36,071 nucleotides of DNA, taken from Verrucomicrobiota bacterium (GTDB taxonomy: Bacteria; Verrucomicrobiota; Verrucomicrobiia; Limisphaerales; JBFMBT01). The position numbers and the translations under genes are program-made. Shown here piece by piece: positions 12,720 through 32,101 of this stretch. Numbering within the stretch: the stretch's first letter is position 1; each line of letters starts with the position of its first letter. Location of the stretch: assembly GCA_040754875.1 (NCBI GenBank), contig JBFMBT010000017.1:1-36071 (forward strand). The letters are read 5' to 3'. The notes under the pieces are model-generated. The model had not been told where the DNA came from. It saw only the letters and a program-made list of their open reading frames with translations, and ran no database searches.

Positions 12720-12754
12720 TAGATCGCGACCCTCGTTGTGTCCATTATTACCGC

Positions 12755-14170: not shown

Positions 14171-14171
14171 A

Positions 14172-16640: not shown

Positions 16641-17413
16641 CGATGAAACGCCGGCCACTCATCCTCATCACGCCCAGCAAACACGCCAAGGGCGCGGAAA
16701 TGGACGACGCCTCCGTGTGTGTCTCCGAGCATTATGCCAACGCTGTGCTGGCCGCGGGCGGGATTCCGCTGATTGTTCCGCGCATGACCGATCCGCAACT
16801 CGTCGCCGAATGCCTGCGCGTTTGCGATGGGCTCCTGCTCACGGGCGGCGATGATGTGAATCCAAAGCTCTACCGTGAAACTCTCTCGCCGGGATTGGAG
16901 AAAACGGTGGAGCTGGCCGACGCGGAGCGCGATTTGCAGGAGTTGATGCTCGTTGATGAAATTTTCCGCCAACGCAAACCATTGCTGGCCATCTGCCGCG
17001 GCCACCAGGTTTTGAATGTGGCATTGGGCGGCGATTTGATTGTGGATATTCCGCAACAGGTTCCGGGTGCGCTGAATCATTCGCGATCTGACCGCCGGTT
17101 TGACCCGGTGCATGATGTGCAGTTGACGGATGACTCGGTCCTCGTCAGTATCGCGGGAAGCAGCGCATTTGGAGTCAATAGTTCTCATCACCAGGCGGTT
17201 GGACGCGCAGCCCGGCCGCTGAAAGTCACGGGAAGGAGCGATGACGGGGTGATCGAGGTACTCGAACTGGCGGATGAAGCCAGGGCGTGGCTGCCATGGC
17301 TGCTTTCGGTGCAAGCACACCCCGAACGATTATTCGACAGGTATCCGGAGCACTTGGAAATATTCCGGAGATTCACCGGGGCCTGTGCAAATGGATTTAA
17401 AGGCGATAAATGA
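16637..17413 (+). CDS. gamma-glutamyl-gamma-aminobutyrate hydrolase family protein (class I glutamine amidotransferase-like, peptidase C26)
   Basis: It carries the catalytic context LLAICRGHQVLNVALGG...SSHHQAV. Confidence 0.85.
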   Translation: MTMKRRPLILITPSKHAKGAEMDDASVCVSEHYANAVLAAGGIPLIVPRMTDPQLVAECLRVCDGLLLTGGDDVNPKLYRETLSPGLEKTVELADAERDLQELMLVDEIFRQRKPLLAICRGHQVLNVALGGDLIVDIPQQVPGALNHSRSDRRFDPVHDVQLTDDSVLVSIAGSSAFGVNSSHHQAVGRAARPLKVTGRSDDGVIEVLELADEARAWLPWLLSVQAHPERLFDRYPEHLEIFRRFTGACANGFKGDK

Positions 17414-18750
17414 GCGCAAAGATACTGGTTGTTGATGACGAGCAAACGGTGCGGGACCTGTTGGTGACCATTCTCAACAAGTCCGGTTACCAGACCAGCG
17501 AAGCCGGCGATGGCGCCAGCTTGCGCGAGTGTTTTGCCGGAACCCAGCCGGACCTCGTGCTGATGGACCTGAAACTGCCTGACGCCGACGGCTTGGAACT
17601 GCTCCCGGCATTGAAAAAGAACTGGCCGGAAACGGAAGTCATCGTGCTGACCGGTTACGCGTCCATTGATGCGGCCGTGATGGCGACGAAACTGGGCGCC
17701 TACGATTTTCAAAAGAAACCGTTCGACACGAAAGGGCTCTTGCTTGCCGTCGAACGTGCGCTCGAACACAAACAGCTTACCGAACAGGCCAGTTCGTTGC
17801 GGCGCGCGTTGTCCACGATCAGCGGCAGCGAGTCGCCGGTGTTTCGCAGCCAGGCGATGAAGGAAATCGTGCGCCAGGTGGAGCGGGTGGCCCCCGCCGA
17901 TGTTCCCGTGTTGATCACTGGCGAGAGCGGCACGGGCAAGGAAGTCATGGCGGATCTGATTCACGCGCTGAGCACGCGCGCCAAGGGCCCGCTGGTGAAG
18001 ATCAATTGCGCCGCGTTGCCGCGTGAATTGATCGAGAGCGAATTGTTTGGCTCGGTCAAAGGCGCGTTTACGGGCGCGCATGCCGACCGGGAAGGATTGT
18101 TCCGCCAGGCCAATGGCGGGACGCTGTTCCTGGACGAGATTTCGGAAATGCCCATTGACACGCAGAGCAAGCTGCTGCGCGTGTTGCAGGAGCAGGTGGT
18201 GCGTCCGGTGGGGGGACGGGAAACTTATAAAACCAATTGCCGCATCGTGGCCGCCACGAACCGTGAGGTCGAGCACGCCATCCGCGACGGCAAATTGCGC
18301 GAGGATCTGTATTATCGCATCAACGCGTTTTCCATCGCTTTGCCGCCGCTGCGGGACCGGCGCGAGGACATCCTTCCGCTGGCGGATGCTTTTCTGAAAC
18401 GCTTTTCCGCGCAGGCCGGACGAGTCATCGCCGGGTTCACAAGCGCCGCCCAACAGCGGTTGCGCACCTTTGATTGGCCGGGAAACGTGCGGCAGTTGCA
18501 AAACGAAGTGCAGCGCGCCGTGCTGCTGTGCGAACAGCGGGAAGTGGACACGAACGACCTTTCCATCAGTTCGAAGGAGCCGGAAGTTGCTGCCGATCCC
18601 AAACTCAGCCTTATCGAGGTCATGGAGCGTAATGCCATCGTGCAAATGCTCAAGGAAACGGGCGGAAACAAGCTTGAAGCCGCCAAGCGCCTTGGCATTG
18701 GACGGCAGACGCTTTACAACAAGCTCAAGGAATACGGGATTCAGACGTAA
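17410..18750 (+). CDS. sigma-54-dependent Fis-family response regulator (NtrC-type: REC + AAA+ sigma-54 activator + HTH)
   Basis: It has a REC domain with an acceptor Asp ([10 protein letters not shown]), Walker A GESGTGKE, a GAFTGA-like activator loop ([10 protein letters not shown]) and a C-terminal Fis-type HTH. The ATGA overlap with the upstream gene suggests coupling. Confidence 0.9.
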
Positions 18751-18950: not shown

Positions 18951-19397
18951 ATGCAAGTTTCGGGTCTAGTAGCCAGCATTCTCAGCCAGAAGGGCGGGTC
19001 AGTGTATTCGATTGCGCCGGACGCGATGGTGTATGACGCCATTCAAATGATGGCGGACAAGAACGTTGGCGCATTGCTCGTCATGAAAGATGAGAAATTG
19101 ATGGGTGTGATTTCCGAACGCGATTATACGCGCAAGGTCATTCTCAAGGGCAAGCTTTCCAAACAAACGCCGGTGCAAGAAATTATGACCAGCCCGGTCA
19201 TCACGGTGACGCCGAACCATTCCATTGATGAGTGCATGCGCCTTATCAGCGAGAAGCGCGTGCGGCATTTGCCGGTTGTGGACGGCGAGAAGGTTGTGGG
19301 CGTCGTATCCGTCGGCAATCTGGTGAACTGGATCATTTCGGCGCAAAACGCCACGATCAACCAGTTGCAAAACTACATTTCCGGCGGTTACGCCTGA
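18951..19397 (+). CDS. CBS domain pair protein
   Basis: It contains two CBS motifs (VGALLVMKDEKLMGVISERD, HLPVVDGEKVVGVVSVGNL). ATG at 18951 was chosen as the start. Confidence 0.8.
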   Translation: MQVSGLVASILSQKGGSVYSIAPDAMVYDAIQMMADKNVGALLVMKDEKLMGVISERDYTRKVILKGKLSKQTPVQEIMTSPVITVTPNHSIDECMRLISEKRVRHLPVVDGEKVVGVVSVGNLVNWIISAQNATINQLQNYISGGYA

Positions 19398-20293
19398 GTG
19401 ATGCGCGGCGCTTCGGCCGCTTCGCAATGGCCCGCCATCTCGAGGTAAACGGCCTTTATCTTGTCTTCAAATTCCGTTATGTGCTGGCGCAATTTGCTCC
19501 AGTCGTTTTTGAATTCCCATTTGCTCGGGTCCCACCAGCCGATTTGATTTAGATGATCGGCGGGGAAGGGGAATGGGTGCTGGTGAACGGCTTTTGCGCG
19601 GCCGTTGCTCGAAATCAATTCAGGCGTCCAGGCTTGCGAACGCGCGGACACGAGGCCGTCGCTTGCGTCTTCCTTGCTTTGGAGATACAGCCACGAGCCC
19701 TGCAGGAGCCAGAACACGGAGCCGAATTCCACGGAGCTTGACCAGGTGTGATATTGGACGGCGTTGGTTGCCTCAGTGTCTTGCGCGCGGCGGTTGAAGT
19801 CTGCGCAGGCGGCGGTCGTCAGATCACGAAAGCCTTCGAGATCCAGGTAAGGGCGAATCTTGTCGATGAGCAGTTCGCCGCCGAATTCGAGCGCGACATC
19901 CGCCCAGGTCGTGCCCAGGTGCGGCGTGCCGATGGTCGTCAGGGTGGCGATTTTTTCGCTCATGCCGGGCGCATCCACAATCATGTGGCGGGCGTCCAAC
20001 CCGCCCATGCTGTGGCCGATGATGTGAACCTTGGGTCGTTGCGTGCGCGCCAGAATGGCTTCGACCTGTTCGGTCAATTGACGGGAGCGTTCGGAGATGC
20101 CACCCGCGAAACTCACGCTCGCGTGGTGCACCTCGTAGCCGTTGGCTTCGAGGTGGCTCTTGATGTTCCGGAAGTAATGCCACGAATCGTCCAGTTGCAC
20201 GCCCGCGTTCTGAAGCTTGTCTTGAATCCGCTCGCGCAACAGGTCGAAGCGCGCGATGCCATGGGCGAGCACGATGGGAAAGGTCGTGGGCAT
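19388..20293 (-). CDS. lipase/esterase-like alpha/beta hydrolase (class-2 lipase / DUF676-like), apparently cytoplasmic
   Basis: It has a GHSMGG nucleophile-elbow motif and no signal peptide. The ATG at 20293 lies only 15 nt downstream of the giant-protein stop on the same strand. Confidence 0.8.
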   Translation of the reverse strand: MPTTFPIVLAHGIARFDLLRERIQDKLQNAGVQLDDSWHYFRNIKSHLEANGYEVHHASVSFAGGISERSRQLTEQVEAILARTQRPKVHIIGHSMGGLDARHMIVDAPGMSEKIATLTTIGTPHLGTTWADVALEFGGELLIDKIRPYLDLEGFRDLTTAACADFNRRAQDTEATNAVQYHTWSSSVEFGSVFWLLQGSWLYLQSKEDASDGLVSARSQAWTPELISSNGRAKAVHQHPFPFPADHLNQIGWWDPSKWEFKNDWSKLRQHITEFEDKIKAVYLEMAGHCEAAEAPRITQA

Positions 20294-20308: not shown

Positions 20309-23300
20309 TCAGTAGTTTTCCGGTGGCGGGAGGTTGACGTCGCCGCCTTTGACGGCTTTCGCCTTGGCCTGCCATTCGCGCTCGGCCTGGATGATTTCCC
20401 AAATCTTCTTCAACGTGTCGCGCGAGACGGAAGTAATCTGGTAATCGGATTGCTCGCCGGAATCGAGCACGCGCAACGTCGGCTGTTCGCGCTGGAGTTT
20501 CACGTTCTCGGCCAGCGCCGCCTGAATGGAAGCCAGCGTCTGGCCGAAGTGGCCGAGTTGCGAGGCGAGCTGGCCGACCAATTCCTTGTCCAACGCGGGC
20601 GCCGGCGCGGCTTTGCGCGGCGTTTCCTGCTGTTTCACGCCTTCGGCGAGCACACCTTTGATGGATTCCAATCCTTGGGCGAACGCGGCCAACTGGCCGG
20701 TGATTTGTTCGACGGAATCGGTGGTCGGTTTGCGGACGCTGTCCCGCTGGGCCTTCACCGCATCGGTAAGCACCGAACGAATCGAATCAAGCCCTTCGGC
20801 AAACGTGGAAAGCTGCGCGACGACCTGGCCGATCGGGTCCTTTTGATTGACGCCCTGGAACAGCAGGTTGCGCTTGAACGTCTTCTTGATGTCTTCCCAG
20901 CGGGCCGCGTCGCTCTCGGTCATCCAGCCTTGTAGTTCGCGGAATTTGAGGAGGTTGGCTTCGGCGCCGGTCGTGAGCGTCTGCGATTCGTTTTTGTAGT
21001 GGTCGGCGATGACGAGCTTCACTTCCTCCTCGTTCATCACGGGCAGAATCTTTTCTGCCATGCGATTCATGTTGCGGTAGGAGCCTTGTAATTTGAACGG
21101 CGGCTCGGTGCGATATGCCTCCGCCTGCGCCGCCGAGCGGATGTATTCGAGATTCACGCGCAGGACCGTGTCGCGGATGCGGAACAGCCACTTCATCACG
21201 GCGACCATCTCGGTGGTTTCCTCGGCGGAGTAATTGCCCTCGAATTCGACGCCGTCGCGCGTGCCGGTCTCGGCAATCTTCACAATCGCGTAAACATCCT
21301 TCTGGCTGCGGCTGCTCAGGCGGTTGAGCACCGGATTGGACGTCAGCGTGTTTTCCAGATAGCTCAACTTGAACGCCTCGTCCGCTCCGCCGACGATGTC
21401 GCCGAGGTTGTAGGTGTCGGCGCGATTGGCGAGCATGTCGGGGATCTTGAATTTCTCGCCGCTCTCGGTGTACGGATTGCCGGCCATGACCACGCACACC
21501 TTCTTGCCGCGCAAATCGTAAGTCTTCGCGCGCCCCTTATAGACGCCTTCGATCTTCCGCTGCGCATCGCACAACGAGATGAACTTCTGCAAGAACTCGG
21601 GATTCAAATGCTGGATGTCGTCCAGGCAGATCATCACGTTGTCGCCCATTTCGAACGCGAGATTGAGCTTCTCGATTTCCTCGCGCGCGCTGGCGTTGGG
21701 CGCTTCGCCGGGGTCGAGCGATGTCACCTCGTGCCCGATGGCCGGGCCGTTGATCTTCATGAAGATGATGCCCAGCCGGTTGGCGATGTATTCCATCAGC
21801 GTTGTCTTGCCGTAGCCGGGTGGGGAAACGAGCAGCAGCATGCCCATGCGATCCGTGCGTGTGGCTTCGCCGGCGACGCCGAGTTGCTTGGCGAGATTGC
21901 TGCCGACCATGGGGAGGTAAACGGAGTCAATGAGCCGGTTGCGCACGAACGACGTGAGGACACGCGGACGGAACTCGTCCAACCGCATGTCCTGGCGCAT
22001 GGCTTCCACCAGCGCCGCCTTGTGCCGATGATATTTTTCGAACAGCGGCATCACGTCGCGTTCATGGCGCGTGAGCTTGTGCATGAAGGCGTTGTAGTTC
22101 AGCGAACAGGTCTGGTCCTTGAGCGCCGGATGCGAACCCATCATGCCGGCAATCTGCGTGGCGACTTCCGCGTCCACCACGGCCCGCGGATCGGGTGTGC
22201 CGCGCAACAAGACGGCCATGGCTTCGTCCAGATATTCGGCGTCCAGCGGGCTTTCGGCCGTGGGCAGAAAGGCCGACACCCAGTCGCGAATCAAATGGCA
22301 GGTCGCACGAACATTGCTTTCGAGCGCGTGCTTCGCTTCTTCGAACCGCTTGGTGACATGCTTGGTGCGCAGGAACAGCGTGAAGGCATGGCAGATGTCC
22401 GCCGCCTTGCGGCTGATGACGAGCGTCGCGTTGCTGGTAAGGTCGTGGAACAGGTATTCCGCCGCTTCGTCGGCGAGATCGACAGGGAACAGGCCGGTCT
22501 GCGCGCAGAAATCGCGGATGAGCTGCTCCAGTTCGCGGATGTGGGCGGCTTCGGCGCGGTGCGTGGGAAACAGTTCGCGCCGCACGCGCATGCCCGCGAG
22601 TTTGGCGGCCAGGATCGGGTCCTTCCTTTCGTGCTCGTGCCAGAAGGCGGCGGCACAGGCGCGCGCGTGGGTGTGGTAGCGCAACAGGCCGATGGTGGAA
22701 TGCAGCCGCAGCAACTCGCGCAGAATCTTCGCGCCGTCGAGATCGTGAATCCCCTTGATGTAGCCTTCGGAATAACGCGGCGCCATGAACTCCTGCACGA
22801 ACGCCAGCAACGCCGCGTCATCCAACGCCGTCACGTCCGCCAGGTTCCGGTCCAGTTCGCGCGCATCGAGCGCCTTCAGGATGCGATACGCCAGGTACTC
22901 GGCGCGATACACGGTGTCCGTCTCCGACACGACCTCCTGGTTCCAGGCGGGGCGGGTGGCATCCAGTTCCTGGTCGGCGATTTTCTCGAAGAAGTTCGTG
23001 CCGGTAAGATGATAATACATCTCGCCGTCGCGCAGCACCGTGGTCAGCTCCAGCGGCTGCGTGTTGACCGTGAACTTGTGCTGGCCGAGCTGGATGATGT
23101 TCTTGCCATCGACGAACAGCTCCTGGCGGTCCTTGAGCTGGCGGACCGCGTCTTCGCGAATCGTCTTGAGCCGGCTCTGGATGTCGCCGGACTTGACGGT
23201 GTCCTTCAGGTCGATCAGTTGCTGGACGACGTTCCGCACTTTTTCCACCATGAGATCGGAGGCGAAGTAGCCGTTGATCTCGTTGATGGACTGCATGCCA

Positions 23301-25663
23301 TCGATGCGGTTCTTGATGCCCTTGAGGATGCGGTCCGCCGAGGCCATCAACGCCGTGGCCTTTTTGTTGCGCGCCTCGACCAGACCCAGCTTGCGGTTCT
23401 CGAACGCGGTGTAGAGTTCTTCGCGCTTCTCGGTGAGCTGAAGGACGAATTCGTCGAAATCTGCGAACCGCGCCTCCAGTTCCTCGACGTGCACCATGAC
23501 CTTGGTCAGGTATTCGTCGCAGCGCTCCGGGCTGTCGCAAATCTCGAGGTAATTGGTGACGCTCTGGTCGAGCAGGCGCATCTGCGAACTGAACTGCGCC
23601 TCGCCTTCGCCCTTGGCCAGTTCCTGGCGGCGACGCTTGAGGGCGGCCTTGATCTGATTGAGCGGGGCGTAAATCGCCGAGATGCCATCGATGATGCGCG
23701 TGGTCTGCGTGGAATCCTCGATCTTCAGGTTGCTGACGATCTCGATCAGCATTTCGAGTTCCTTGCCCGTGTTGGCGATGGCTTCGTCCAGCGCCTTGGC
23801 CTCGGTGACCTTGGCCAGCGCGCCGACGGCGTTTTCGTGTTCCTTGACCTTCTTCTGATACGGTTCCAGCGCCTCGGGCTTAAGGAGGAATTCGACGCAC
23901 AATTTGGAAAGCTGCTCGGTGTGCTCGGCGACATTCTTTTCCAGCGCCTCGACCGCCGGCAAATCCACGTAGCGCAATTCCTTCAGCGAAATGATTTCAC
24001 CCCGCACGGCGCGCAAGCCGGCGAGTTGCGTGACGAAATGGCCGATTTCCTGCAACGCCGAGTAATCGATGCCCGTGGTGAGCCGGGTGGCCGTTTCGGT
24101 GACGCGTTTGACCTCGGCCTGGGTGTTGCGGCGGATGCGAATGACCTTTTCGAATTCATCAATTGCGCTGGAAGCCGCGGTCTTGATAGCCAGCAACGTG
24201 CTCTTGAGATCGAACGCCTCCTTGTTATCGAGCCAGAAATAGGAGTCGATGATGGTCGTCGTGACCTTGACGATATCGACGTACAGGCCGGCGAAGGTGT
24301 CCTGCTTGCCCAGCAGCGTCAGCAGGCTCTGGCACTCGGCCATGCAACCGACGATGGAGGGGTTGCCGATTTTGTAGAGGAACGAATCTTTGCGCGTGGG
24401 CAGGGAGACGTTGTGGTCGAGGAACGGCGTCTGCCAGATTTGAATCGAGTGATGTTTCTGCGGCTCATCAGTGGCTTTGAAAAACGCCATTTCGCCGTTC
24501 TCGAACAGGGAGAATCCATTGCAGACGATGGGCGATTCGACTTTTTGCGCGATGAGGTTGTAGGGCATCAGCACGTAAGTGCCCGACGGTTTGTTGTAGA
24601 AGACGTAGAGGAAATCCTCGCCGTTGGGCGAGGTGATGCGCCGCTCGTACGTCATGTTCGACAGTTCGGTGGGGAACTGTTTGAACTCGCCGAGTTGCAG
24701 GTAATAGCCGCTCGAGAAAATGATGCCCTGGTCGTCCGGCAGCAACACGCACGAGTCCGCGAGGGCGTCGATGCGCCGCACTTCCTTCAGCTTCTCGTTG
24801 AAAACGAAGTAACGGAAATTGGGTTCCTGATACGGACGGATCTTCAGCAGAATCAGGTTGCCGACGATGGCGTAAAATATTTCCGCGTCATCGAGCGTCT
24901 GGTCCTTGTGCTCGACCGGCTCGGAGTAGATGCCTTCGCCGGACTTGGTGTTGTCCTCGACCTTGATGGTCAGGTCGCCTTGGATGGTTTCGACGAAGAC
25001 GCGGTCCGCAATCGAGATGTGCGGGTGCAGGCCGTGGCGATGCAGTTCGCGGTGGGTGCGGATCCATTCGAACTCGTGCTGCGGGGGATACTTCAGTTCG
25101 TGGTCGCTGCGGTTGCCCTGGTAAAGCAACTCGCCGTCCTTCATGAGCCACTTGAACGTCTTGAAATCATCGACGCTCTGGCCTACGCGAAACTTCATGA
25201 ACAGGTGCGGGCCGATCACCATGAGTTTCGCGAAGAACGTGTTCTTGTAATATTTGTAGAGCTGACGGAAGTCGTTCAGGAAGGTCTCGTCGCTGATGAG
25301 ATCCAGCGGCAGTTGCGTGAAGGTGTGGTCCTTGTGCTCGTAAACGGCGAAGACATCGGCCAGTTGCGTCTCGGTCTTCAGGCCGATGAACACGTTGTAG
25401 CCAAACAGGAACCGGCCCTGGCCCACGGAAACCATGTCGCGCGGGACACAGTTGTTGTTCGTGGTGATGTGCTCGGTGGCAACCAGCGCGGTGGGGATGG
25501 AACCGAAGACCTCCTGGCGCGCGGCGTTGAGTTGCGCGAGGCGCGCGCGCAGTTCGGCGCCGCTGGCATCCAGGCGCTTGCGGATGACCTCGTAGGTGCC
25601 GCCCTCGAGCTGGACCTGCGGCTCCTGCGCGGGCTTCGGCGGTTCTGTGGGTTGGTCAGCCAT
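20309..25663 (-). CDS. giant (1784 aa) protein with one AAA_5/MoxR-like ATPase module, coiled-coil regions and C-terminal tandem repeats; function unknown
   Basis: Walker A is LLLVSPPGYGKTT and Walker B is VMICLDDIQ. A sensor/second region GNPYTESGEKFKIPDMLANRADTYNL near residues 1270-1450 resembles dynein-related AAA_5/MoxR modules. A long helical heptad-rich stretch spans residues about 560-900. Three roughly 35-aa C-terminal repeats are present. Confidence 0.85.
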   Translation of the reverse strand: MADQPTEPPKPAQEPQVQLEGGTYEVIRKRLDASGAELRARLAQLNAARQEVFGSIPTALVATEHITTNNNCVPRDMVSVGQGRFLFGYNVFIGLKTETQLADVFAVYEHKDHTFTQLPLDLISDETFLNDFRQLYKYYKNTFFAKLMVIGPHLFMKFRVGQSVDDFKTFKWLMKDGELLYQGNRSDHELKYPPQHEFEWIRTHRELHRHGLHPHISIADRVFVETIQGDLTIKVEDNTKSGEGIYSEPVEHKDQTLDDAEIFYAIVGNLILLKIRPYQEPNFRYFVFNEKLKEVRRIDALADSCVLLPDDQGIIFSSGYYLQLGEFKQFPTELSNMTYERRITSPNGEDFLYVFYNKPSGTYVLMPYNLIAQKVESPIVCNGFSLFENGEMAFFKATDEPQKHHSIQIWQTPFLDHNVSLPTRKDSFLYKIGNPSIVGCMAECQSLLTLLGKQDTFAGLYVDIVKVTTTIIDSYFWLDNKEAFDLKSTLLAIKTAASSAIDEFEKVIRIRRNTQAEVKRVTETATRLTTGIDYSALQEIGHFVTQLAGLRAVRGEIISLKELRYVDLPAVEALEKNVAEHTEQLSKLCVEFLLKPEALEPYQKKVKEHENAVGALAKVTEAKALDEAIANTGKELEMLIEIVSNLKIEDSTQTTRIIDGISAIYAPLNQIKAALKRRRQELAKGEGEAQFSSQMRLLDQSVTNYLEICDSPERCDEYLTKVMVHVEELEARFADFDEFVLQLTEKREELYTAFENRKLGLVEARNKKATALMASADRILKGIKNRIDGMQSINEINGYFASDLMVEKVRNVVQQLIDLKDTVKSGDIQSRLKTIREDAVRQLKDRQELFVDGKNIIQLGQHKFTVNTQPLELTTVLRDGEMYYHLTGTNFFEKIADQELDATRPAWNQEVVSETDTVYRAEYLAYRILKALDARELDRNLADVTALDDAALLAFVQEFMAPRYSEGYIKGIHDLDGAKILRELLRLHSTIGLLRYHTHARACAAAFWHEHERKDPILAAKLAGMRVRRELFPTHRAEAAHIRELEQLIRDFCAQTGLFPVDLADEAAEYLFHDLTSNATLVISRKAADICHAFTLFLRTKHVTKRFEEAKHALESNVRATCHLIRDWVSAFLPTAESPLDAEYLDEAMAVLLRGTPDPRAVVDAEVATQIAGMMGSHPALKDQTCSLNYNAFMHKLTRHERDVMPLFEKYHRHKAALVEAMRQDMRLDEFRPRVLTSFVRNRLIDSVYLPMVGSNLAKQLGVAGEATRTDRMGMLLLVSPPGYGKTTLMEYIANRLGIIFMKINGPAIGHEVTSLDPGEAPNASAREEIEKLNLAFEMGDNVMICLDDIQHLNPEFLQKFISLCDAQRKIEGVYKGRAKTYDLRGKKVCVVMAGNPYTESGEKFKIPDMLANRADTYNLGDIVGGADEAFKLSYLENTLTSNPVLNRLSSRSQKDVYAIVKIAETGTRDGVEFEGNYSAEETTEMVAVMKWLFRIRDTVLRVNLEYIRSAAQAEAYRTEPPFKLQGSYRNMNRMAEKILPVMNEEEVKLVIADHYKNESQTLTTGAEANLLKFRELQGWMTESDAARWEDIKKTFKRNLLFQGVNQKDPIGQVVAQLSTFAEGLDSIRSVLTDAVKAQRDSVRKPTTDSVEQITGQLAAFAQGLESIKGVLAEGVKQQETPRKAAPAPALDKELVGQLASQLGHFGQTLASIQAALAENVKLQREQPTLRVLDSGEQSDYQITSVSRDTLKKIWEIIQAEREWQAKAKAVKGGDVNLPPPENY

Positions 25664-25744
25664 GGAGGATTAAAGCCTCAATTCCCAACCGGCAAACTTC
25701 AAAGAAGCATCAAGCATGAAGCTCCCAAGGATAGGCGCGCCGGC

Positions 25745-27796
25745 TTACGCCTTGCGGTCGCCGAGGGCGTTGACCTTCTTCTCGTGCAAGCCGAGCCGTT
25801 GAGCCAGCGCCAGCATGCGCTGGAGCGTGCCCTTGGTTTCGCCGTCGTCGGCCAGCGTGATCATCTGGCTCAAGGCGGCGGCGACCGTCAGGTTCTTGAC
25901 GTCCTCGGAGGTCAGGCCGAACTGCGAGGTGAAGCCCTTCAACTGCGTCCGGAAATATTCCGGGTCGGAATTGAAGAACGTATCCTTCACGGTGGTCAGC
26001 GTGTCGCTGTTGGCGACCATGCGGTCCACTGCCTTGCCGGCGGTGATGGCGCCGACAATCTTGTCGAAGAACTGCGTCTCGCCGCCCACGATATCGACCT
26101 TGGCGGTCTTGAGCGCCTCGCTGACGACCTGCGCCTGGCTGCTGGCGATGTCCTTCTGGACATTGATCATGGCCAGTTCGACATCCTTCTCCTTGTTCAA
26201 GCGCAGCTTGAATTCCTCGTGCTCGCGGCCGACGCCGTCGAAGATCTTCATCGCTTCGGCCTTCTCGGTGATGCCCTTGGCCTCCGCGCCGTACTTGAGT
26301 TCCATGACCTTGGCTTCGGCGGAACCTTGCTTCTCGACCGCGTTGGCTTTGGCTTCGAGCACCTGGACTTCGCCCAAACCCGGGGCGGCGGTTTCCTTGG
26401 TAACGGCTTCGGCCAGCAATTTCTTGGCCGTGGCTTCGCGTTCGGCCGCTTCCTGGTGCGCCTCAGCCTGAATGATGGTTTCCTGTGCCTTGATCTCGGC
26501 GGCCTTGCGTGAGGCTTCGGCCGCCTTGACCACGCGGATCATGTCCTCGTCCGCCTTGAGTTCGGCGGCGCGCTTGGAGGCTTCGGCCGTTTTCGTTTCT
26601 TTGATGAGAATCTCTTCGCCTTCCATGGTCGCCTTGGTAACGACGACCTGCTTTGTGCGGTCCGCCGCCGCAAAAGCCTCGGTGTCCTTGATGCGCTCTT
26701 TCTCGGCGACGACGGCCTTCTCCACCATCACACGCTCGCGGATGACATCCTGAATCTTCTTTTGCTCCACTTCGATGGCGCGCTGCTTCTCGATGTCCGC
26801 CAGCGTCACCACGCGTTCGCGTTCGGTGACCTCCAAAAGGCGATCTTTCTCGACGCGCTCGGTTTCCACCGCATTAGTGCGCTCCTTGTTCTTTTGCGCC
26901 ACGATGATCTGGCGGTTTTTGTTTTCCTCGGCGATGGCGATTTCCTCGTCCGCCGCGATGCGGGCCTGTTCGCCCTTGAGTTTCATCTCCTGCTCGACCT
27001 TCTTGGCCTCGGCGTGTTCGCGCGCGGTGAGGGTGGCAATCTCGCGCTTCTGCTTCTCGGTGGCCTCGGCGAGCTGACGGTTCAATTCGAGAATCTTTTC
27101 CTTCGCTTCGACGTCCTGCGCAGTGATGACCTTTTCCTTGTCGCGTGCAATACTGTTGGCCAGTTTGGCCTGAGCCGCGGTTAACTCGGTGATCTTTTTG
27201 ATGCCCTCGGAGTCCAAAATGTTGTTGGGGTTCATGTACTCGAGGCTGGTCTGCTCCAGATAATCAATGGCGGCGTCATCGAGCACATAGCCGTTCAAGT
27301 CCGTGCCGATGCTCTTGAGAATCTGGTCGCGAAATTGCTCGCGTGAGTTGTACAGCTCCACGAAATCAAACTGTCGGCCCACAGTCTTCAACGCTTCCGA
27401 AAATTTCGCGTCGAACAACTCGGAAATGGCCTTCTGGTCGGAGGCGCGCGTGCAACCCACGGTGGTAGCCACCTTGACCACGTCATCCTCGGTTTTGTTC
27501 ACGCGCACAAAGAACGCCACGCTGATGTCCGCGCGCATGTTGTCTTTGCAGATGAGACCGGCGGCGCCGCGCCGGTCGATCTCGATGCGGTGGACCGAGA
27601 TGTTCATGAATTCCACCTTGTGCAGGACGGGGATGACGATCATGCCCGAGAACGAGACTTTGGTCCCGCCCGCACCGTTGCGCACCAGCGCCCATCCTTG
27701 ATCGACCTTTCGGTAACAGCGCAAAATCATGGCGATGAAACCGATCCCAATGATCAAGCCGACAAACATCAGCACCGCAACTATCGCTCCACTCAT
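25745..27796 (-). CDS. flotillin-family SPFH protein (YqiK/FloT-like) with an extended E/K/A-rich coiled-coil region
   Basis: It has an N-terminal TM segment followed by an SPFH domain (VRNGAGGTKVSFSGMIVIPVLHKVEFMNISVHRIEID...). The long EA-rich flotillin repeats bring it to 683 aa, longer than typical YqiK-like proteins. Confidence 0.9.
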   Translation of the reverse strand: MSGAIVAVLMFVGLIIGIGFIAMILRCYRKVDQGWALVRNGAGGTKVSFSGMIVIPVLHKVEFMNISVHRIEIDRRGAAGLICKDNMRADISVAFFVRVNKTEDDVVKVATTVGCTRASDQKAISELFDAKFSEALKTVGRQFDFVELYNSREQFRDQILKSIGTDLNGYVLDDAAIDYLEQTSLEYMNPNNILDSEGIKKITELTAAQAKLANSIARDKEKVITAQDVEAKEKILELNRQLAEATEKQKREIATLTAREHAEAKKVEQEMKLKGEQARIAADEEIAIAEENKNRQIIVAQKNKERTNAVETERVEKDRLLEVTERERVVTLADIEKQRAIEVEQKKIQDVIRERVMVEKAVVAEKERIKDTEAFAAADRTKQVVVTKATMEGEEILIKETKTAEASKRAAELKADEDMIRVVKAAEASRKAAEIKAQETIIQAEAHQEAAEREATAKKLLAEAVTKETAAPGLGEVQVLEAKANAVEKQGSAEAKVMELKYGAEAKGITEKAEAMKIFDGVGREHEEFKLRLNKEKDVELAMINVQKDIASSQAQVVSEALKTAKVDIVGGETQFFDKIVGAITAGKAVDRMVANSDTLTTVKDTFFNSDPEYFRTQLKGFTSQFGLTSEDVKNLTVAAALSQMITLADDGETKGTLQRMLALAQRLGLHEKKVNALGDRKA

Positions 27797-27798
27797 AT

Positions 27799-28512
27799 TT
27801 ATTCCTCGATTATAGGTTCTTCGTATCGGACAACTTTGAACAGGCCCTTCTCGCGATCCTGTTCGATGACCAACGCCTTGTCGCCGCGCTTGAGCACGGC
27901 GTCTCCCGTTGTGCGCACCTGGATGGTCAACGGCACCCCCTTGTGTTCCAGCGACGCCTGGCCAAAACCCGTCGTCACTTCACCGGTCAGTACCTTGACC
28001 ACCTGGCCGACAATCTGGATTTTTTCGTCAAAATCCTGGTCGAGTTTCCGGAAGATCTTGCGGAACGGATACGTCAGCACGCGGGTGAGCAACACGCAGA
28101 CGATCAGGTTCGGCACGAGCAAAACCAGCCCGCGAACCAAACCGTAGTTGGGATTGAGGTAGTGGTTGGCCAGAATGGAGAACGCCCAACCGCACAAGAC
28201 TAATATGCTCAGGATGATGGTTACCGGCAGTTCGCCGACATGGAGGAAAGTGAGGAAGGCGTTCAAAATCCCGCCGTGCCCGTGGGTGTGGGAATCACTG
28301 TCACCATCGGCGTGCGCGTCTCCGTCGGCATGGACGTCGCCATCCGCATGCAAATCCGCGTGCCCATCCAGGTGAACATCCATGCCCGAATCCATGGAGT
28401 CGAGGTGAACGAGGCCGGAAGCGACCATCAGCCAGTACAGCACCATCAACACCACCAACAAAGTAAAAGGCAGGTTGATCGGCTGGATGGCGGCATGGAA
28501 CAGTTCTAGCAT
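27799..28512 (-). CDS. YqiJ/NfeD-like membrane protein (short NfeD with a C-terminal OB-fold) with a His/Asp-rich (HADGD)x3 loop
   Basis: Its stop lies 2 nt before the flotillin start. It has TM helices and a C-terminal beta-rich NfeD-like domain (VGQVVKVLTGEV...GVPLTIQVRT...DKALVIEQD). The arrangement mirrors E. coli yqiJ-yqiK and B. subtilis yuaF-floT. Confidence 0.75.
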   Translation of the reverse strand: MLELFHAAIQPINLPFTLLVVLMVLYWLMVASGLVHLDSMDSGMDVHLDGHADLHADGDVHADGDAHADGDSDSHTHGHGGILNAFLTFLHVGELPVTIILSILVLCGWAFSILANHYLNPNYGLVRGLVLLVPNLIVCVLLTRVLTYPFRKIFRKLDQDFDEKIQIVGQVVKVLTGEVTTGFGQASLEHKGVPLTIQVRTTGDAVLKRGDKALVIEQDREKGLFKVVRYEEPIIEE

Positions 28513-28640
28513 GACGGCTCAACCCTTTGCTTGTTCACGGCGACAAACGGTGAAGGCTTCCTCGGCCTTCACGTCCCACCCCAACCGGCTGTGGGAGCAA
28601 CTCTACGCCTTCCACCAGACCACACGTGCGAGCGGATGTC

Positions 28641-28666
28641 TTTTATAAAAACCCACCCCGATTATA
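28641..28666 (-). promoter_or_regulatory. AT-rich island with a TATAAT (-10-like, minus strand) and a palindromic TTTTATAAAA element upstream of the yqiJ-flotillin-giant operon
   Basis: It is the only AT-rich patch in the 216-nt intergenic region 28513-28728. TATAAT on the minus strand corresponds to attata at 28661-28666. The -35 element is weak. Confidence 0.3.
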
Positions 28667-28728
28667 AAGCAAGCGCCGAACGTAGTGAGCAGCAAAAGAT
28701 TTCACGGACTTCCGGGTGTTTGGCCGTC

Positions 28729-29649
28729 TCATTGAGCGCCTTCCCGTTTACTTTTCGTCTTTAATGCCTCTTCAATCTTCAGCACCGCATTGCGAAGTTC
28801 GACCCGAACCTCGGGTTGGGGGTCACGCAAGGCATCCCGGATAAGCGGAAGGGCGGATTCTCCGTATTCACCCAAGTTTCCAATTAGGAAAGCGACTTGC
28901 TGACGGGCGTAACCGTTCACGTCTTTCAACTCAAACACCAGGACGCGCGCCATTTGCTCCGATGGCATTCCACGTGGCAGGACGCGCAAGGTGTCGCGTG
29001 CTGTTGCTCGGAGACGCGGTTCAATGCCGTCGTCATACGCGAGGGCTATTAATTCCCGCATCAAGTCAGGGGGAAGGTAGGTTTGTTGCAGACAGATTCC
29101 AGCGCAAACGTTCACGGAATTGTTGGTATTGGCGAAAGCGTGAATCAAGACCGCCAGGCCTTCAGGGCCTGCATGAGCCAGACTCTGCGCCAATTCCAGC
29201 CGACCGCGCACCCAAGGACTTGGATCATTCAGCCGTTTTGCCAAAACGGGAACGGCCGACTTTGCGAGGGGACCAAGCGCTTGACAGGCAATCGCCGCTC
29301 GCGTGCTTCGCAATTCTGCCGGTGGATACTTCAACGGGAGCCATGTTTGGCGGTTGCTCCACGAGATAATTGGCCGCAGCCAGGGAGAATCCGTTGCTGC
29401 GAGTTCCTTCATTACCGCCGGGAGGGCGTTGGTGCCGATTAACTGGATGGCTTCCATGGCCCTGCCTCGAGTGGCGGGCTCGTCAAGGTCCGCAAGCCAT
29501 TCTTGCAAAGACCGGCCATCATGGCTTGGTTTGCTTGACGACAAAAACGGAATCGCCAGTGCGCATCCAGCGAGAAGAATACACGCGAGGATTCGAATGC
29601 GCTTTGGCTGCCTAGTGCTTCTGGTTACGGGAACGGAATCGTTGCTCAA
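28729..29649 (-). CDS. membrane-anchored HEAT/armadillo-like repeat protein
   Basis: It has an N-terminal signal-anchor (ILACILLAGCALAIPFL) followed by repeated helical-pair motifs with conserved L/A/P. The start appears to be TTG, overlapping the upstream AAA gene stop by 4 nt. Confidence 0.65.
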   Translation of the reverse strand: MSNDSVPVTRSTRQPKRIRILACILLAGCALAIPFLSSSKPSHDGRSLQEWLADLDEPATRGRAMEAIQLIGTNALPAVMKELAATDSPWLRPIISWSNRQTWLPLKYPPAELRSTRAAIACQALGPLAKSAVPVLAKRLNDPSPWVRGRLELAQSLAHAGPEGLAVLIHAFANTNNSVNVCAGICLQQTYLPPDLMRELIALAYDDGIEPRLRATARDTLRVLPRGMPSEQMARVLVFELKDVNGYARQQVAFLIGNLGEYGESALPLIRDALRDPQPEVRVELRNAVLKIEEALKTKSKREGAQ

Positions 29650-31319
29650 ATTGCCTTTTTCCGTCGGAACATTTCCGGCACGAAATCCTTGTCGCTGGCC
29701 TCGCTGACCGCCAGTTCAATCTGGAACTCCATGATTTCGCGCGCGACGGGGCTTTGGTACGTGGCCAGCGCCTGTCCCAGGGCCTCGCGCGGCGCGACAC
29801 CCTGCGTCTTGATGGTGCGATACAATTTGATGGAGAGCGCCTCCGCCGCGCCCGGCGTCATCAACGTCGGAATCAGCGGATGCACGGCGTCAAAGTCCTC
29901 CGGGGTAAACACCAGGCCCAGCCGTTTGCTCAACGCCTTGATGAGGTCAAAACTCTCCTGCGTCGTCGTCGTCGGGAAAATGGGAATCTTCACATCCACG
30001 CGACCGGGGCGTTTCAAATCCACCTCAATCAAGTCCGGCCGGCTCGACGCGAGAATCCAGATGATTTTGCCCCGGTTGTCCGGGTTGCTCATCTCCTTGG
30101 CGAACATGGAATAGACGCGGCCGGACAAACCGCCGTCGTTCGAGCCAGAATCCCGTTTGCCCAAGGCCTGGTCGGCTTCGTCGATGAAGACGAAACAGCG
30201 CCCCAGGCTTTGCAGCAGTCGGAAAATCTTCTCCAGATTGCCTTCGGTGCTGCCCACCCATTTGTCGCGGAAATTCTTGATCTTCACCACGGGCACGCCG
30301 GCTTCGCCCGCAAGGCATTCCACCATGAACGTCTTGCCCGTGCCCACCGGGCCGCAAATGAGGTAACCCATCGGCATGGCCTTGAGGTCGCCCTGCCGCC
30401 AGAGCGCGATGTCCTGCCGCAGCCAGGTCTTCAACTTGTCCTGCGCGTGCAGGAAATCGAGGTTGCGCCTGGACTCGATGAACTCGATGAGGTCGTTGCA
30501 TTCCTTTTCCACCAGCGCCTTCTTCAGCACCACCAAATCATCGTGTTCGAGCGGATCCTTCTCGTATTCCTTCATCTTCAACAGGCTCTCGGACGCCGTC
30601 AGCGAGGTGCCGGCGAGCAGCGCGGCGAGTTGATCGATCTGGCCGTCAAACTTTTTGAGCGCGACGGGATACGAGCCTTTCACCAGCTCCAACGCCGGTT
30701 TCAATTCCGCCGCGGTGGGCAGGGGAATCTTGATTTCCGCCGCGCGCGGGTTGTTGCTCAGCAGGGGATGCAGGTCGTTGATGTTGTCCGCCAGCAGGCA
30801 CGTCACGAGCGGAAAGCCGGTGAACACGTTGTCCGACGACCAGTCGCGGATGAGCGTGGCCAGCGCGTTCAAATCGAAGTGAAACGAACCGGGCATCGCG
30901 GGCGCCACGAGGTCCGCGCCGCGAATCCAGCAGCCGATTTGCAGCGGGCGCTTGCCAAGCCGGCTCAGGTTCGCGCAGTAACGGAAATAATGCGTCAACG
31001 TCTCGATGGCGGCGCGGGGTTCGCGCGGCAGTTCCTTTTCCTTGTAGGACGGCCATTGCGTGAAAACTTCGCCGCCCTTCTCGATGCGGATGCCGTTGCC
31101 GAGGTCGTAGCTGATGACCACGTCAAACCGCGGCATCAGAACCTTGAGCAGAAAATCTGTGAGGCTCCCAACCGACGCCTCGGCGCCCGCCGGCAGGATG
31201 AAGCGGTCATGGATGTTTCCGTACAGGACGAACTGGCTGGCGGCGTGGCTTTGGTAGAGGGAGATGACCTCGTTGGCCCAAGCCGGCAGCGCGGGTGGTT
31301 TGGTGTCCTTCGGTTGCAT
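29646..31319 (-). CDS. classic-clade AAA ATPase (FtsH/Vps4/CDC48-like AAA module) with an uncharacterised roughly 330-aa N-terminal domain and no protease domain
   Basis: Walker A is ICGPVGTGKTF, Walker B is CFVFIDEADQ, and a second region of homology with arginine fingers is present (ASSRPDLIEVDLKRPGRVD). ATG at 31319 was chosen as the start, with an AAGAAGGGG SD-like element 6 nt upstream. The ORF track gives an alternative start at 31466. Confidence 0.8.
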   Translation of the reverse strand: MQPKDTKPPALPAWANEVISLYQSHAASQFVLYGNIHDRFILPAGAEASVGSLTDFLLKVLMPRFDVVISYDLGNGIRIEKGGEVFTQWPSYKEKELPREPRAAIETLTHYFRYCANLSRLGKRPLQIGCWIRGADLVAPAMPGSFHFDLNALATLIRDWSSDNVFTGFPLVTCLLADNINDLHPLLSNNPRAAEIKIPLPTAAELKPALELVKGSYPVALKKFDGQIDQLAALLAGTSLTASESLLKMKEYEKDPLEHDDLVVLKKALVEKECNDLIEFIESRRNLDFLHAQDKLKTWLRQDIALWRQGDLKAMPMGYLICGPVGTGKTFMVECLAGEAGVPVVKIKNFRDKWVGSTEGNLEKIFRLLQSLGRCFVFIDEADQALGKRDSGSNDGGLSGRVYSMFAKEMSNPDNRGKIIWILASSRPDLIEVDLKRPGRVDVKIPIFPTTTTQESFDLIKALSKRLGLVFTPEDFDAVHPLIPTLMTPGAAEALSIKLYRTIKTQGVAPREALGQALATYQSPVAREIMEFQIELAVSEASDKDFVPEMFRRKKAI

Positions 31320-31432
31320 TGGTCGCCCCTTCTTAGCGCGAACAGGGCCGCAAGGAAAGCAAAACAGGGCGACCCGCGCGCGACTCAACTTCGCGCTTGC
31401 GGTGCGCGAAACGAATGCGGACGCTCGGGTGC

Positions 31433-32101
31433 ATGAACGAGCTGGCCAGATATATCGACCATACATTGCTTAAGCCTGATGCGGTCAAAGGTGACATTGA
31501 GAAGCTGTGCGCGGAGGCAAAGGAACATGGTTTTTACGGCGTATGCGTAAACACGTCGCGGCTGGCGCTGGCGCACGCGTTGCTGGAGGATTCGGAGATC
31601 AAAGTCAGCGCGGTGGTCGGCTTTCCGCTGGGTGCGTGCGATGCCGATGCCAAGCGATTCGAGACAGAGGTGGCGTTGGATCTCGGGGCCCAGGAAATCG
31701 ACATGGTGCTTAACATTGGCCGCCTGAAGGATGGCGATGACAAATATGTGCTGCGCGAGTTGCGCGATGTGGTCGAGGCCGCGGAAGAACGGCCGGTGAA
31801 GGTGATTCTCGAAACGTGCCTGCTCACGCGTGAGGAAAAGATTCGCGCCTGCCGCCTGGTGCTCGATTCGGGAGCGAACTTTGTCAAAACGTCCTCGGGC
31901 TTCAGCGCGGGTGGGGCGACGATCGAGGATGTAAGGCTTCTGCGCGAAATCGTCGGGAAGGATTTTGGGGTGAAGGCGGCGGGCGGAATCCGCGATGCGG
32001 CCATGGCGCGCGCGTTGATTGAGGCGGGCGCGAATCGATTGGGCACATCCGCCAGCGTGGCGATTGTGCAGGAACAGGCCGCAGCCCCGGGCGCGTACTG
32101 A
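31433..32101 (+). CDS. deoC: deoxyribose-phosphate aldolase
   Basis: The N-terminus LARYIDHTLLKPDA, the motif KVILETCLL and a Schiff-base lysine context (FVKTSSGF) are typical of DeoC. Confidence 0.9.
   Translation: MNELARYIDHTLLKPDAVKGDIEKLCAEAKEHGFYGVCVNTSRLALAHALLEDSEIKVSAVVGFPLGACDADAKRFETEVALDLGAQEIDMVLNIGRLKDGDDKYVLRELRDVVEAAEERPVKVILETCLLTREEKIRACRLVLDSGANFVKTSSGFSAGGATIEDVRLLREIVGKDFGVKAAGGIRDAAMARALIEAGANRLGTSASVAIVQEQAAAPGAY

Follow-up and report, generated by a model that had tools for sequence, protein, structure and literature searches.

The 36,071-bp contig analysed here (hereafter the window) carries a gene for a giant AAA+ ATPase whose most likely site of action is the cell membrane, not DNA. 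We propose membrane action because the gene lies nearly always directly after genes for a flotillin and a small membrane protein. In our favoured reading (probability about 0.55), three conserved genes encode a membrane module whose ATPase subunit is this protein, acting from the cytoplasm as an ATP-driven remodeller in association with flotillin/NfeD (and PspA) assemblies. The window protein is an ordinary member of a widespread, catalogued, uncharacterised bacterial family, and its gene adds no new kind of system. The features discussed below are as follows.

27799..28512, minus strand: YqiJ/YuaF-type (short NfeD-like) membrane protein, 237 aa; first cassette gene
25745..27796, minus strand: flotillin-family SPFH protein, 683 aa (NCBI "flotillin family protein"); second cassette gene
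20309..25663, minus strand: giant soluble AAA+ ATPase of the DUF3686/DUF7902 family, 1784 aa (NCBI "DNA repair ATPase"); third cassette gene
24236..25555, minus strand: DUF3686 domain, residues 37-476 (Pfam PF12458)
23084..24166, minus strand: long helical, coiled-coil-like region, residues ~500-860 (composition and 3.5-residue periodicity)
23621-23875, minus strand: DUF7902, residues 597-681 (Pfam PF25472, E=6.3e-28)
22199..22906, minus strand: all-alpha domain, residues ~920-1155 (AlphaFold model, pLDDT about 90)
20864..21937, minus strand: single AAA+ module with C-terminal helical (lid) domain, residues ~1243-1600
21800-21826, minus strand: Walker A, residues 1280-1288
21611-21631, minus strand: Walker B "LDDIQ", within residues 1345-1351
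Within the AAA+ module: pre-sensor-1 beta-hairpin, residues 1370-1383 (AlphaFold model)
Within 21470-21481, minus strand: sensor 1, N1396
20492..20839, minus strand: three tandem helical repeats of ~31-42 aa each, residues 1609-1724, motif GQ..QL..F..GL.SI...L

The ATPase gene is a single ATG-started open reading frame, as a preliminary description of this DNA had it, and the motifs quoted there are all present: SPPGYGKTT at residues 1280-1288, ICLDDIQ at 1345-1351, GNPY at 1395-1398 and ANRADTYNL at 1412-1420. The NCBI protein from the same contig is identical to its product, and a 1634-aa antisense frame was rejected as a shadow ORF. The frame is not a chance one, given more than 6000 full-length homologues in many phyla and the conserved residues of the nucleotide site. 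The best 120 of these homologues are 55-66% identical to the query over 91-100% of its length, and all 120 share DUF3686, AAA and DUF7902. A search with the N-terminal domain matched 751 clusters at 50% identity, whose complete members are 1600-1930 aa long and carry the domain at the N-terminus. The earlier view that the architecture could be assigned to no known family was thus mistaken, as the protein matches a catalogued family (PF12458, PF25472 and AAA) along its full length. The preliminary description had named a full-length match to a family of established function as grounds for refutation; the match exists, but the family's function is not experimentally established, so that refutation does not follow. 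A 2024 comparative-genomics paper in mSystems already describes the operon and its "Betapropeller+Coiled-coil+AAA-ATPase" (PMC11237479). Our literature search found no published experimental work on the family or operon and nothing relevant on DUF3686/PF12458, or on "DNA repair ATPase" together with flotillin or PspA; a P. aeruginosa SPFH paper and a 2009 paper on SPFH evolution do not mention the giant ATPase.

The N-terminal domain gave the strongest family match (PF12458, E=3.2e-182, 606.5 bits, residues 37-476, model positions 1-448 of 448). It is indeed rich in aromatic residues (F 8.1%, Y 5.0% and W 0.8% over residues 58-415), and the question raised earlier of whether it might be a beta-propeller can be answered in favour of a divergent, propeller-like fold: in the AlphaFold model, residues 59-411 are all-beta, forming about 6-7 four-stranded sheets, beside a helical bundle made of one helix at residues 23-53 and the helices of residues 428-499. 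The roughly 350 residues of coiled coil predicted previously are compatible with residues ~450-810, where Pro and Gly are few, E, K and L are many, and hydrophobic periodicity is raised at 3.5-3.6 residues. A small beta unit (873-894) precedes the all-alpha domain in the model, and residues 861-1155 are among the less conserved parts of the protein (mean identity 0.34, against 0.75 in the AAA core). At the C-terminus, the repeats are modelled as helical but with low pLDDT, have a mean identity of 0.15 and give way to a variable tail. With an HMM of the three window copies, one to three copies of the repeat were found in 116 of 184 long homologues; three copies occur in only a few of these, the window clade included. 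A sequence scan predicted no transmembrane segment anywhere in the ATPase, which by this measure is a soluble protein.

The protein holds one nucleotide-binding module, placed in its C-terminal third as first described. The GK[ST] motif occurs once in all 1784 residues (at residue 1285), the AlphaFold model covering residues 860-1784 contains a single alpha/beta P-loop domain, and a motif search of residues 500-860 found no P-loop. The Pfam AAA match spans residues 1276-1396, and the module also takes in the conserved R1414 and the R1518/R1530 region. Among 100 relatives, four features of the module never vary (the Walker A lysine, the Walker B DD, the sensor-1 Asn and R1414), and R1518 is kept in 99%. 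No solved structure of any relative was found: PDB searches with the single sequence and with the family profile matched the Walker A region only (p97, VAT, RuvB), and NCBIfam returned only sub-threshold matches to RuvB and CDC48.

Conservation of gene order carries the case for a membrane role. The cassette runs from a YqiJ/NfeD-like gene with three transmembrane segments through a flotillin-family SPFH gene to the giant ATPase, and the three genes are contiguous on one strand in at least six phyla. In 55/59 related loci the flotillin gene immediately precedes the ATPase gene on its own strand, and a YqiJ-like gene was detected upstream of the flotillin gene in 46/56. Gaps between yqiJ and flotillin are often -4 to +25 nt (2 nt from stop to start in the window), and those between flotillin and ATPase are commonly below 100 nt. 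An adjacent flotillin gene is missing from four loci, three of them from Lentisphaeria, with a Kdo/WaaP-like kinase gene upstream instead. When all ORFs of 80 loci were clustered, the YqiJ-like, flotillin and ATPase families were the only recurrent ones. We also weighed three neighbours as possible parts of the cassette, the alpha/beta hydrolase gene downstream and the HEAT and AAA genes upstream, and rejected them for want of recurrence in other loci. The cassette also occurs in Streptomyces, Proteus mirabilis and Nocardiopsis (L052) and on megaplasmids (pQBR103 and those of Hymenobacter, Deinococcus and Streptomyces), and the ATPase family is present in Vibrio. An endonuclease III-like gene lies 7 kb from the ATPase gene and is not conserved near the cassette. 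A sigma-54 activator gene lies near yqiJ in the window, but a search for sigma-54 promoters gave 17 matches where 21 were expected, and none fell upstream of yqiJ (28513-28728, minus strand). No sigma-70-like promoter was found, and terminator-like sites were not clearly above expectation.

Both partners are predicted membrane proteins. The YqiJ-like protein has three predicted transmembrane segments, a His/Asp-rich loop and a soluble C-terminal part; it matches Pfam YqiJ_N just above the cut-off (E=4.3e-5, 24.1 bits against 23), and its Hymenobacter orthologue is annotated as DUF1449. The flotillin has a single N-terminal transmembrane segment with basic residues right behind it, a divergent SPFH domain, a long helical region rich in E, A and K, and a C-terminal domain, and its bulk is predicted to be cytoplasmic. 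Since the window protein alone matches neither Pfam Band_7 nor any PDB entry, its SPFH identity was established through the family profile, which matches the SPFH protein QmcA (8z5g, E=2.9e-5), and through orthologues that match Band_7 (L014, 8e-12; pQBR103, 9e-11).

PspA is a bacterial protein of the ESCRT-III type. Longer versions of the cassette, with added CesT/Tir-like and PspA genes, occur in Bacteroidota and on the Pseudomonas plasmid pQBR103. The added genes lie immediately upstream of the cassette in a Flavobacteriales locus (L062; CesT_Tir_1, E=9e-56, and PspA_IM30, E=5e-40), a Hymenobacter plasmid carries a Tir chaperone gene and PspA upstream, and pQBR103 has the order YjfI, PspA, further genes, SPFH, ATPase. 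Of the 80 genome loci, only 2 have an adjacent PspA gene, and in most loci of the PVC group the CesT/Tir and PspA genes are not adjacent to the cassette. Neither domain was detected in the scanned ORFs of the 36-kb window, which fits the "abbreviated operon" lacking an adjacent CesT/Tir-PspA pair (PMC11237479).

Other SPFH proteins form oligomeric membrane scaffolds. In the mechanism we favour, flotillin and its NfeD-like partner would build such a scaffold at the inner membrane, on its cytoplasmic side, and the ATPase would form oligomers, probably hexamers, via its AAA+ domain and dock on the scaffold through the propeller head or the C-terminal helical repeats. With ATP, the docked enzyme might then build up, take apart or rearrange flotillin and/or PspA polymers, or their clients, in membrane stress or maintenance. 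We infer interaction with flotillin, NfeD or PspA from gene order only. No aromatic residue occupies the pore-loop-1 position (residues 1306-1323) and the Walker B motif has DD, not DE; these two features incline us more to a slow remodeller or switch resembling MoxR and midasin than to an unfoldase that threads polypeptides fast. The Walker B DD could even mean very low ATPase activity.

A bolder and doubtful version would make the protein a bacterial motor with one dedicated task, to take apart or recycle flotillin cages and/or PspA polymers. It would match Vps4 in function but have an unrelated ring of the MoxR/midasin type, with six long helical arms whose propeller heads grip the membrane scaffold. 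Bacteria lack Vps4, and we know of no account of how PspA/ESCRT-III-like polymers come apart there. If this version were true, the family would be an ATP-driven bacterial machine for membrane repair or remodelling that is new to experiment.

A rival reading is an unfoldase for protein quality control, coupled to the SPFH cage as in HflK/C-FtsH or prohibitin-m-AAA, that would thread damaged membrane proteins out of the flotillin microdomains where they gather and pass them to a protease or hydrolase. This is unlikely: the ATPase has no protease domain and no conserved protease neighbour, the adjoining hydrolase is not conserved in other loci, the pore-loop-1 aromatic is missing, and the nearest folds are those of MoxR and midasin and not of the Clp or classical clades.

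Carriage on megaplasmids, 55-66% identity across phyla (compatible with horizontal transfer) and the weakly IetA-like AAA gene just upstream in the window would suit an anti-phage or conflict system, in which a membrane-anchored SPFH/NfeD sensor detects envelope perturbation by phage and the ATPase serves as effector or switch. That upstream gene, however, recurs in two loci only, and the window neighbours have housekeeping roles and include nothing of a mobile or defence kind. PADLOC-DB 2.0 gave the ATPase only marginal matches over the P-loop region (mad8, E=1e-3; IetA, E=1.4e-3) and the flotillin and YqiJ-like proteins none at all. Nuclease, toxin and other effector domains are absent, such strong conservation is atypical for fast-evolving defence genes, and a search of 50,697 phage records gave no match. 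We consider a defence role distinctly unlikely.

The AAA+ domain itself is structurally closest to CbbQ and NorQ, and AAA_5 passes its Pfam cut-off, as might be expected of a classical chaperone of the MoxR type, in the mould of CbbQ/CbbO, NorQ/NorD or RavA/ViaA, whose task is the insertion of a metal cofactor or the maturation of one specific complex; the His/Asp-rich loop of the YqiJ-like partner could bind metal. This loop is not conserved, though, tblastn alignments of the YqiJ-like protein beginning past it, and the giant ATPase is five to six times the size of a MoxR protein, gives no AAA_3 match and has DD in Walker B. A VWA/MIDAS domain appears in neither the protein, the scanned window ORFs nor the conserved neighbours, which leaves a cofactor chaperone very unlikely.

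A true SMC/Rad50/SbcC-type DNA-repair ATPase is highly improbable despite the Pfam/NCBI label, the long coiled-coil-like region and the endonuclease III-like gene 7 kb away (not retained near the cassette elsewhere), since a single contiguous AAA+ domain holds both Walker motifs, ~57 residues from each other, where an ABC-type head would have them separated by a coiled coil, the LSGG/SGG signature is absent, no DNA-binding domain and no SMC or Rad50 match (Pfam, NCBIfam) were found, and the conserved partners are membrane proteins.

The name "DNA repair ATPase" most likely does not describe a function but is a label carried over from the coiled-coil region; spread by annotation pipelines, it is probably misleading. 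Bacterial flotillins and their NfeD partners are widespread, and their mode of action is poorly understood. With ~1800 residues, high conservation and a place beside flotillin in many phyla, the giant-ATPase family is a concrete candidate for the missing energy-consuming component, and several carriers are open to genetics (Proteus mirabilis, Pseudomonas fluorescens SBW25 with plasmid pQBR103, Streptomyces and Vibrio).

Among known systems, the closest is the operon described in PMC11237479 (Pfam DUF3686, DUF7902 and AAA; NCBI "DNA repair ATPase"), with which the window shares domain order, length, the YqiJ-flotillin-ATPase gene order and strong Pfam matches. The Flavobacteriales locus L062, whose ATPase is 50% identical to the window protein, reproduces the Dokdonia operon listed there. 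The window differs from the full form in lacking an adjacent CesT/Tir-PspA dyad, and its clade has three copies of the C-terminal helical repeat and not one.

The AAA+ fold is of the MoxR/AAA_5 type, although sequence identity to CbbQ, NorQ, RavA and midasin/dynein of the AAA_5 clade is 10-13%. Of the features of MoxR proteins, the pre-sensor-1 hairpin is present in the model; a helix-2 insert is not evident in its secondary structure, the stretch between strand 2 and helix 2 (residues 1306-1323) being a conserved loop with no visible beta-hairpin. MoxR-type ATPases are compact (~300-500 aa) and normally work with a VWA/MIDAS-domain partner, usually encoded adjacent. The window ATPase, in contrast, has 1784 residues, no VWA domain in the protein or in the window ORFs and no fourth conserved neighbour family. 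Unlike both the MoxR family and midasin/dynein, it has about 1250 residues ahead of the AAA+ module, and it has one such module where midasin and dynein concatenate six. Nor does it belong to the classical AAA clade (PF00004: FtsH, p97, Vps4), which has a second region of homology and no pre-sensor-1 hairpin.

HflK/C-FtsH and prohibitin-m-AAA likewise couple an SPFH scaffold gene genetically to a membrane AAA+ machine. FtsH and m-AAA are membrane-anchored proteases of the classical clade, however, whereas the window ATPase is predicted to be soluble, lacks a protease domain and belongs to another clade; their SPFH cages are periplasmic or lie in the intermembrane space, whereas the bulk of the window flotillin is predicted to be cytoplasmic. 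With Vps4/ESCRT-III of archaea and eukaryotes, the giant ATPase shares a link, in some lineages, to a polymer of the ESCRT-III superfamily (PspA) and a proposed role in polymer remodelling. Vps4 is a classical-clade AAA protein of ~440 aa with an MIT domain and has no kinship to the giant ATPase in sequence or clade; the PspA link is absent from most loci. The first two cassette genes, DUF1449/YqiJ followed by a flotillin-type SPFH gene, are those of YqiJ-YqiK in E. coli and SO1376-SO1377 in Shewanella. The window flotillin is longer (683 aa) and more divergent than the YqiK/SO1377 type and has no Pfam Band_7 match, and units of the YqiJ-YqiK/SO1376-SO1377 type end in a terminator without an ATPase gene (PMC1468410).

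The ATPase gene (20309–25663, minus strand) begins with ATG and encodes 1784 residues, bearing out the giant protein reported in a preliminary description, and its product is identical to the NCBI protein annotated on this Verrucomicrobiota MAG contig (36071 bp). The reported motifs all lie where expected (SPPGYGKTT at residues 1280–1288, ICLDDIQ at 1345–1351 and GNPY at 1395–1398), and ANRADTYNL occupies residues 1412–1420. A single nucleotide-binding module, as had been claimed, was confirmed by one GK[ST] motif in the whole protein and one P-loop alpha/beta domain in an AlphaFold model of residues 860–1784 (pLDDT 79.3). The aromatic-rich N-terminal domain was also recovered, as residues 58–415, and residues ~450–810, with their composition and 3.5-residue periodicity, resemble long helices or a coiled coil. 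No hydrophobic segment of sufficient length for a transmembrane (TM) helix was found in the protein. The ATPase is soluble, and its AAA+ nucleotide site is invariant.

What did not hold was the view that this architecture cannot be assigned to a known family. Pfam assigned DUF3686 (PF12458, E=3.2e-182, whole model) to residues 37–476, DUF7902 (PF25472, E=6.3e-28) to residues 597–681 and, weakly, AAA (31.7 bits), AAA_5 (24.8 bits), RuvB_N and AAA_22 to residues 1260–1401. Searching 5.8 billion proteins and scoring 8000 candidates gave more than 6000 homologues; the best 120 share 55–66% identity over 91–100% of the length, have the same Pfam string and come from Verrucomicrobiota, Planctomycetota, Desulfobacterota, Acidobacteriota, Sumerlaeota and Binatia. 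Used as a query, the N-terminal domain matched 751 clusters (50% identity). Complete members are 1600–1930 aa long, all with the DUF3686-type domain at the N-terminus, and the best 120 homologues are named "DNA repair ATPase", "MoxR-like ATPase", "AAA family ATPase" or hypothetical at source. One full-length homologue in a eukaryotic protein set (P0104, EukProt entry g33011.t1, 1711 aa, 58% identity) could be bacterial contamination or horizontal transfer. NCBIfam returned no model for the family, and PDB sequence and profile searches matched only the Walker A region, with no solved structure of any relative. All features tested for the DUF3686/DUF7902 AAA+ family were found in the window ATPase except adjacency to a PspA dyad, an optional feature in the published operon description (PMC11237479), and the protein thus belongs to a known family, previously described by computation. 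A literature search for experimental work on the ATPase found no study.

The ATPase gene closes a cassette of three genes, listed here with other features of the window.

Genes and open reading frames (ORFs) of the window
27799–28512, minus: YqiJ-like protein, 237 aa, three TM segments, YqiJ_N Pfam match
25745–27796, minus: NCBI "flotillin family protein", 683 aa, one N-terminal TM segment, directly upstream of the ATPase gene
28729–29649, minus: HEAT-repeat protein, 306 aa, and 29646–31466, minus: AAA ATPase, 606 aa, both directly upstream of the cassette
19388–20293: alpha/beta hydrolase, downstream of the cassette
17410–18750, plus: sigma-54-dependent transcriptional regulator, convergent on the cassette end
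21608–26512, plus: 1634-aa ORF on the strand opposite the ATPase and flotillin genes
4933–6510, minus: 525 aa, spermine/spermidine-synthase-like methyltransferase domain; the cassette lies 15 kb away
1620–3737, minus; 6882–8831, 9423–10880, 11741–14170 and 14127–15788, plus: other ORFs

Queried alone, the window flotillin had no match in Pfam or PDB. Its SPFH identity is nevertheless established: a profile of 20 orthologues matches the SPFH protein QmcA (E=2.9e-5), orthologues have Band_7 matches (8e-12 at locus L014; 9e-11 on megaplasmid pQBR103), and annotations of cassette orthologues name them SPFH or flotillin proteins. The YqiJ-like protein has a His/Asp-rich loop between TM1 and TM2 (residues ~40–80, HLDGHADLHADGDVHADGDAHADGDSDSHTHGHGG), whose composition suggests metal binding; orthologue alignments begin past this loop, which is therefore not conserved.

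We examined 80 fetched genome loci encoding relatives, limiting counts to those with enough upstream DNA. A flotillin gene lay directly upstream of the ATPase gene on the same strand at 55 of 59 loci, and a detectable YqiJ-like gene preceded it at 46 of 56. When all ORFs from the 80 loci and the window were clustered, only the YqiJ-like, flotillin and ATPase families recurred. Intergenic gaps are small or overlapping (commonly −4 nt for yqiJ-flotillin). The ATPase gene looks obligately linked to the genes for a flotillin anchored in the membrane and a protein of NfeD-like type. Three of the four flotillin-less loci are Lentisphaeria (L050, L060, L073), where genes for a 256-aa membrane protein and a Kdo/WaaP-like kinase replace flotillin upstream of the ATPase and may constitute an alternative partner set. 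At 11 Akkermansiaceae/Luteolibacter loci (L018, L020, L021, L023, L025, L028, L041, L063, L067, L069, L072), an ORF of ~124 aa, presumably a GxxExxY-type small protein, widens the flotillin-ATPase spacer to 350–520 nt.

The cassette also occurs in Nocardiopsis (L052), Streptomyces and Proteus mirabilis, on pQBR103 (P. fluorescens SBW25) and on a Hymenobacter plasmid; the ATPase N-domain further matched records of Deinococcus, Vibrio, Photobacterium and Halomonas, and no phage record. In P. mirabilis H63 (L084; proteins of 209, 731 and 1644 aa) its neighbours are genes for LemA and TPM-domain proteins, transcribed divergently and likewise of families associated with the envelope; the record (NZ_OL790811.1, 4.08 Mb), filed as a 'plasmid', is evidently a chromosome.

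Other neighbours in the window are not conserved at related loci, including the hydrolase and the HEAT and AAA genes, whose stop and start overlap. The 606-aa AAA ATPase is of the classical clade (PF00004, E=7e-25; weak IetA-like PADLOC match, 1.4e-10), and a homologue adjoins yqiJ only at loci L012 (56% identity) and L044 (25%). The antisense ORF was rejected as a gene and read as the shadow that a GC-rich gene casts, because at related loci the longest antisense ORF reaches a median length of just ~311 aa. A scan upstream of yqiJ for the sigma-54 promoter consensus gave no match. The remaining genes of the contig specify ordinary Verrucomicrobiota-type proteins (including an FAD oxidoreductase with Golvesin_C, a multihaem cytochrome, a sulfatase, and BNR and FG-GAP repeat proteins), without mobile or defence genes.

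At the Flavobacteriales locus L062, CesT_Tir_1 (E=9e-56) and PspA_IM30 (E=5e-40) genes directly precede the cassette, accompanied by a divergent HTH regulator. The Hymenobacter plasmid has the order Tir chaperone, PspA, DUF1449, hypothetical protein, "DNA repair ATPase"; pQBR103 has YjfI, PspA, rhomboid, DUF2491, DUF350, DUF1190, glutathionylspermidine-synthase-like, hypothetical, SPFH, "DNA repair ATPase". This operon class has already been described (PMC11237479, mSystems 2024), with a wider distribution of abbreviated operons lacking PspA and with spermine/spermidine-synthase-like methyltransferase genes tied to PspA operons. The window cassette, with no PspA or CesT gene found in the window, is the abbreviated form. 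PspA adjacency, which just 2 of these 80 loci show, is lineage-specific.

The AlphaFold model runs from a small beta unit through an all-alpha domain (920–1155) and long helices to the AAA+ core, a helical lid with a C-terminal domain, and three long helices. About 750 residues of helices set the propeller-like head apart from the motor. Mean identity to the window residue across 100 relatives is 0.75 in the AAA core, 0.52 in the propeller, 0.34 in the beta unit and all-alpha domain and 0.15 in the C-terminal repeats. The Walker A lysine, Walker B DD, N1396, R1414 and R1530 are 100% conserved in these relatives, and R1518 99%. Walker B is DD rather than DE family-wide, which resembles the DnaA "DDIQ" motif. 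A beta-hairpin (1370–1383) immediately precedes the sensor-1 strand. The low-confidence C-terminal helices are three tandem repeats (residues 1609–1724; 20492–20839, minus strand; motif GQ..QL..F..GL.SI...L), present as one copy in most homologues and two or three in few, and may be a docking element.

SPFH proteins form large membrane-attached oligomers, as in the 26 chains of QmcA entry 8z5g. Basic residues just past the flotillin TM segment would place its bulk in the cytoplasm, the compartment of the ATPase. We favour, at a probability of roughly 0.55, a soluble AAA+ remodeller coupled to flotillin and/or PspA assemblies: the ATPase probably oligomerises, probably docks on the flotillin scaffold and would spend ATP on remodelling these assemblies or their clients. 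A Vps4-like role on an unrelated scaffold is a tentative, rather unlikely reading. An SPFH-coupled unfoldase appears improbable, as no protease accompanies the ATPase and the pore-loop-1 position (1306–1323) has no aromatic residue; together with the Walker B DD and MoxR/midasin-like fold, the latter favours a remodeller or switch over threading. A defence system is distinctly improbable given the housekeeping gene context and lack of a PADLOC signal, and a MoxR-type cofactor chaperone very improbable, with a VWA partner found neither in the protein nor among window ORFs or conserved neighbours. The Pfam description of PF12458 ("ATPase involved in DNA repair") notwithstanding, a true DNA-repair ATPase is scarcely credible: the protein lacks an ABC-type split head, signature motif and DNA-binding domain, and its partners are membrane proteins.

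It is the family rather than the window copy that is of interest, as a candidate for what powers flotillin and PspA dynamics whose role is open to testing in tractable hosts. Among known systems, the window ATPase belongs to neither the classical AAA, the SMC/Rad50 nor the dynein/midasin proteins; it putatively works like the compact VWA-partnered MoxR family, yet is not a member.
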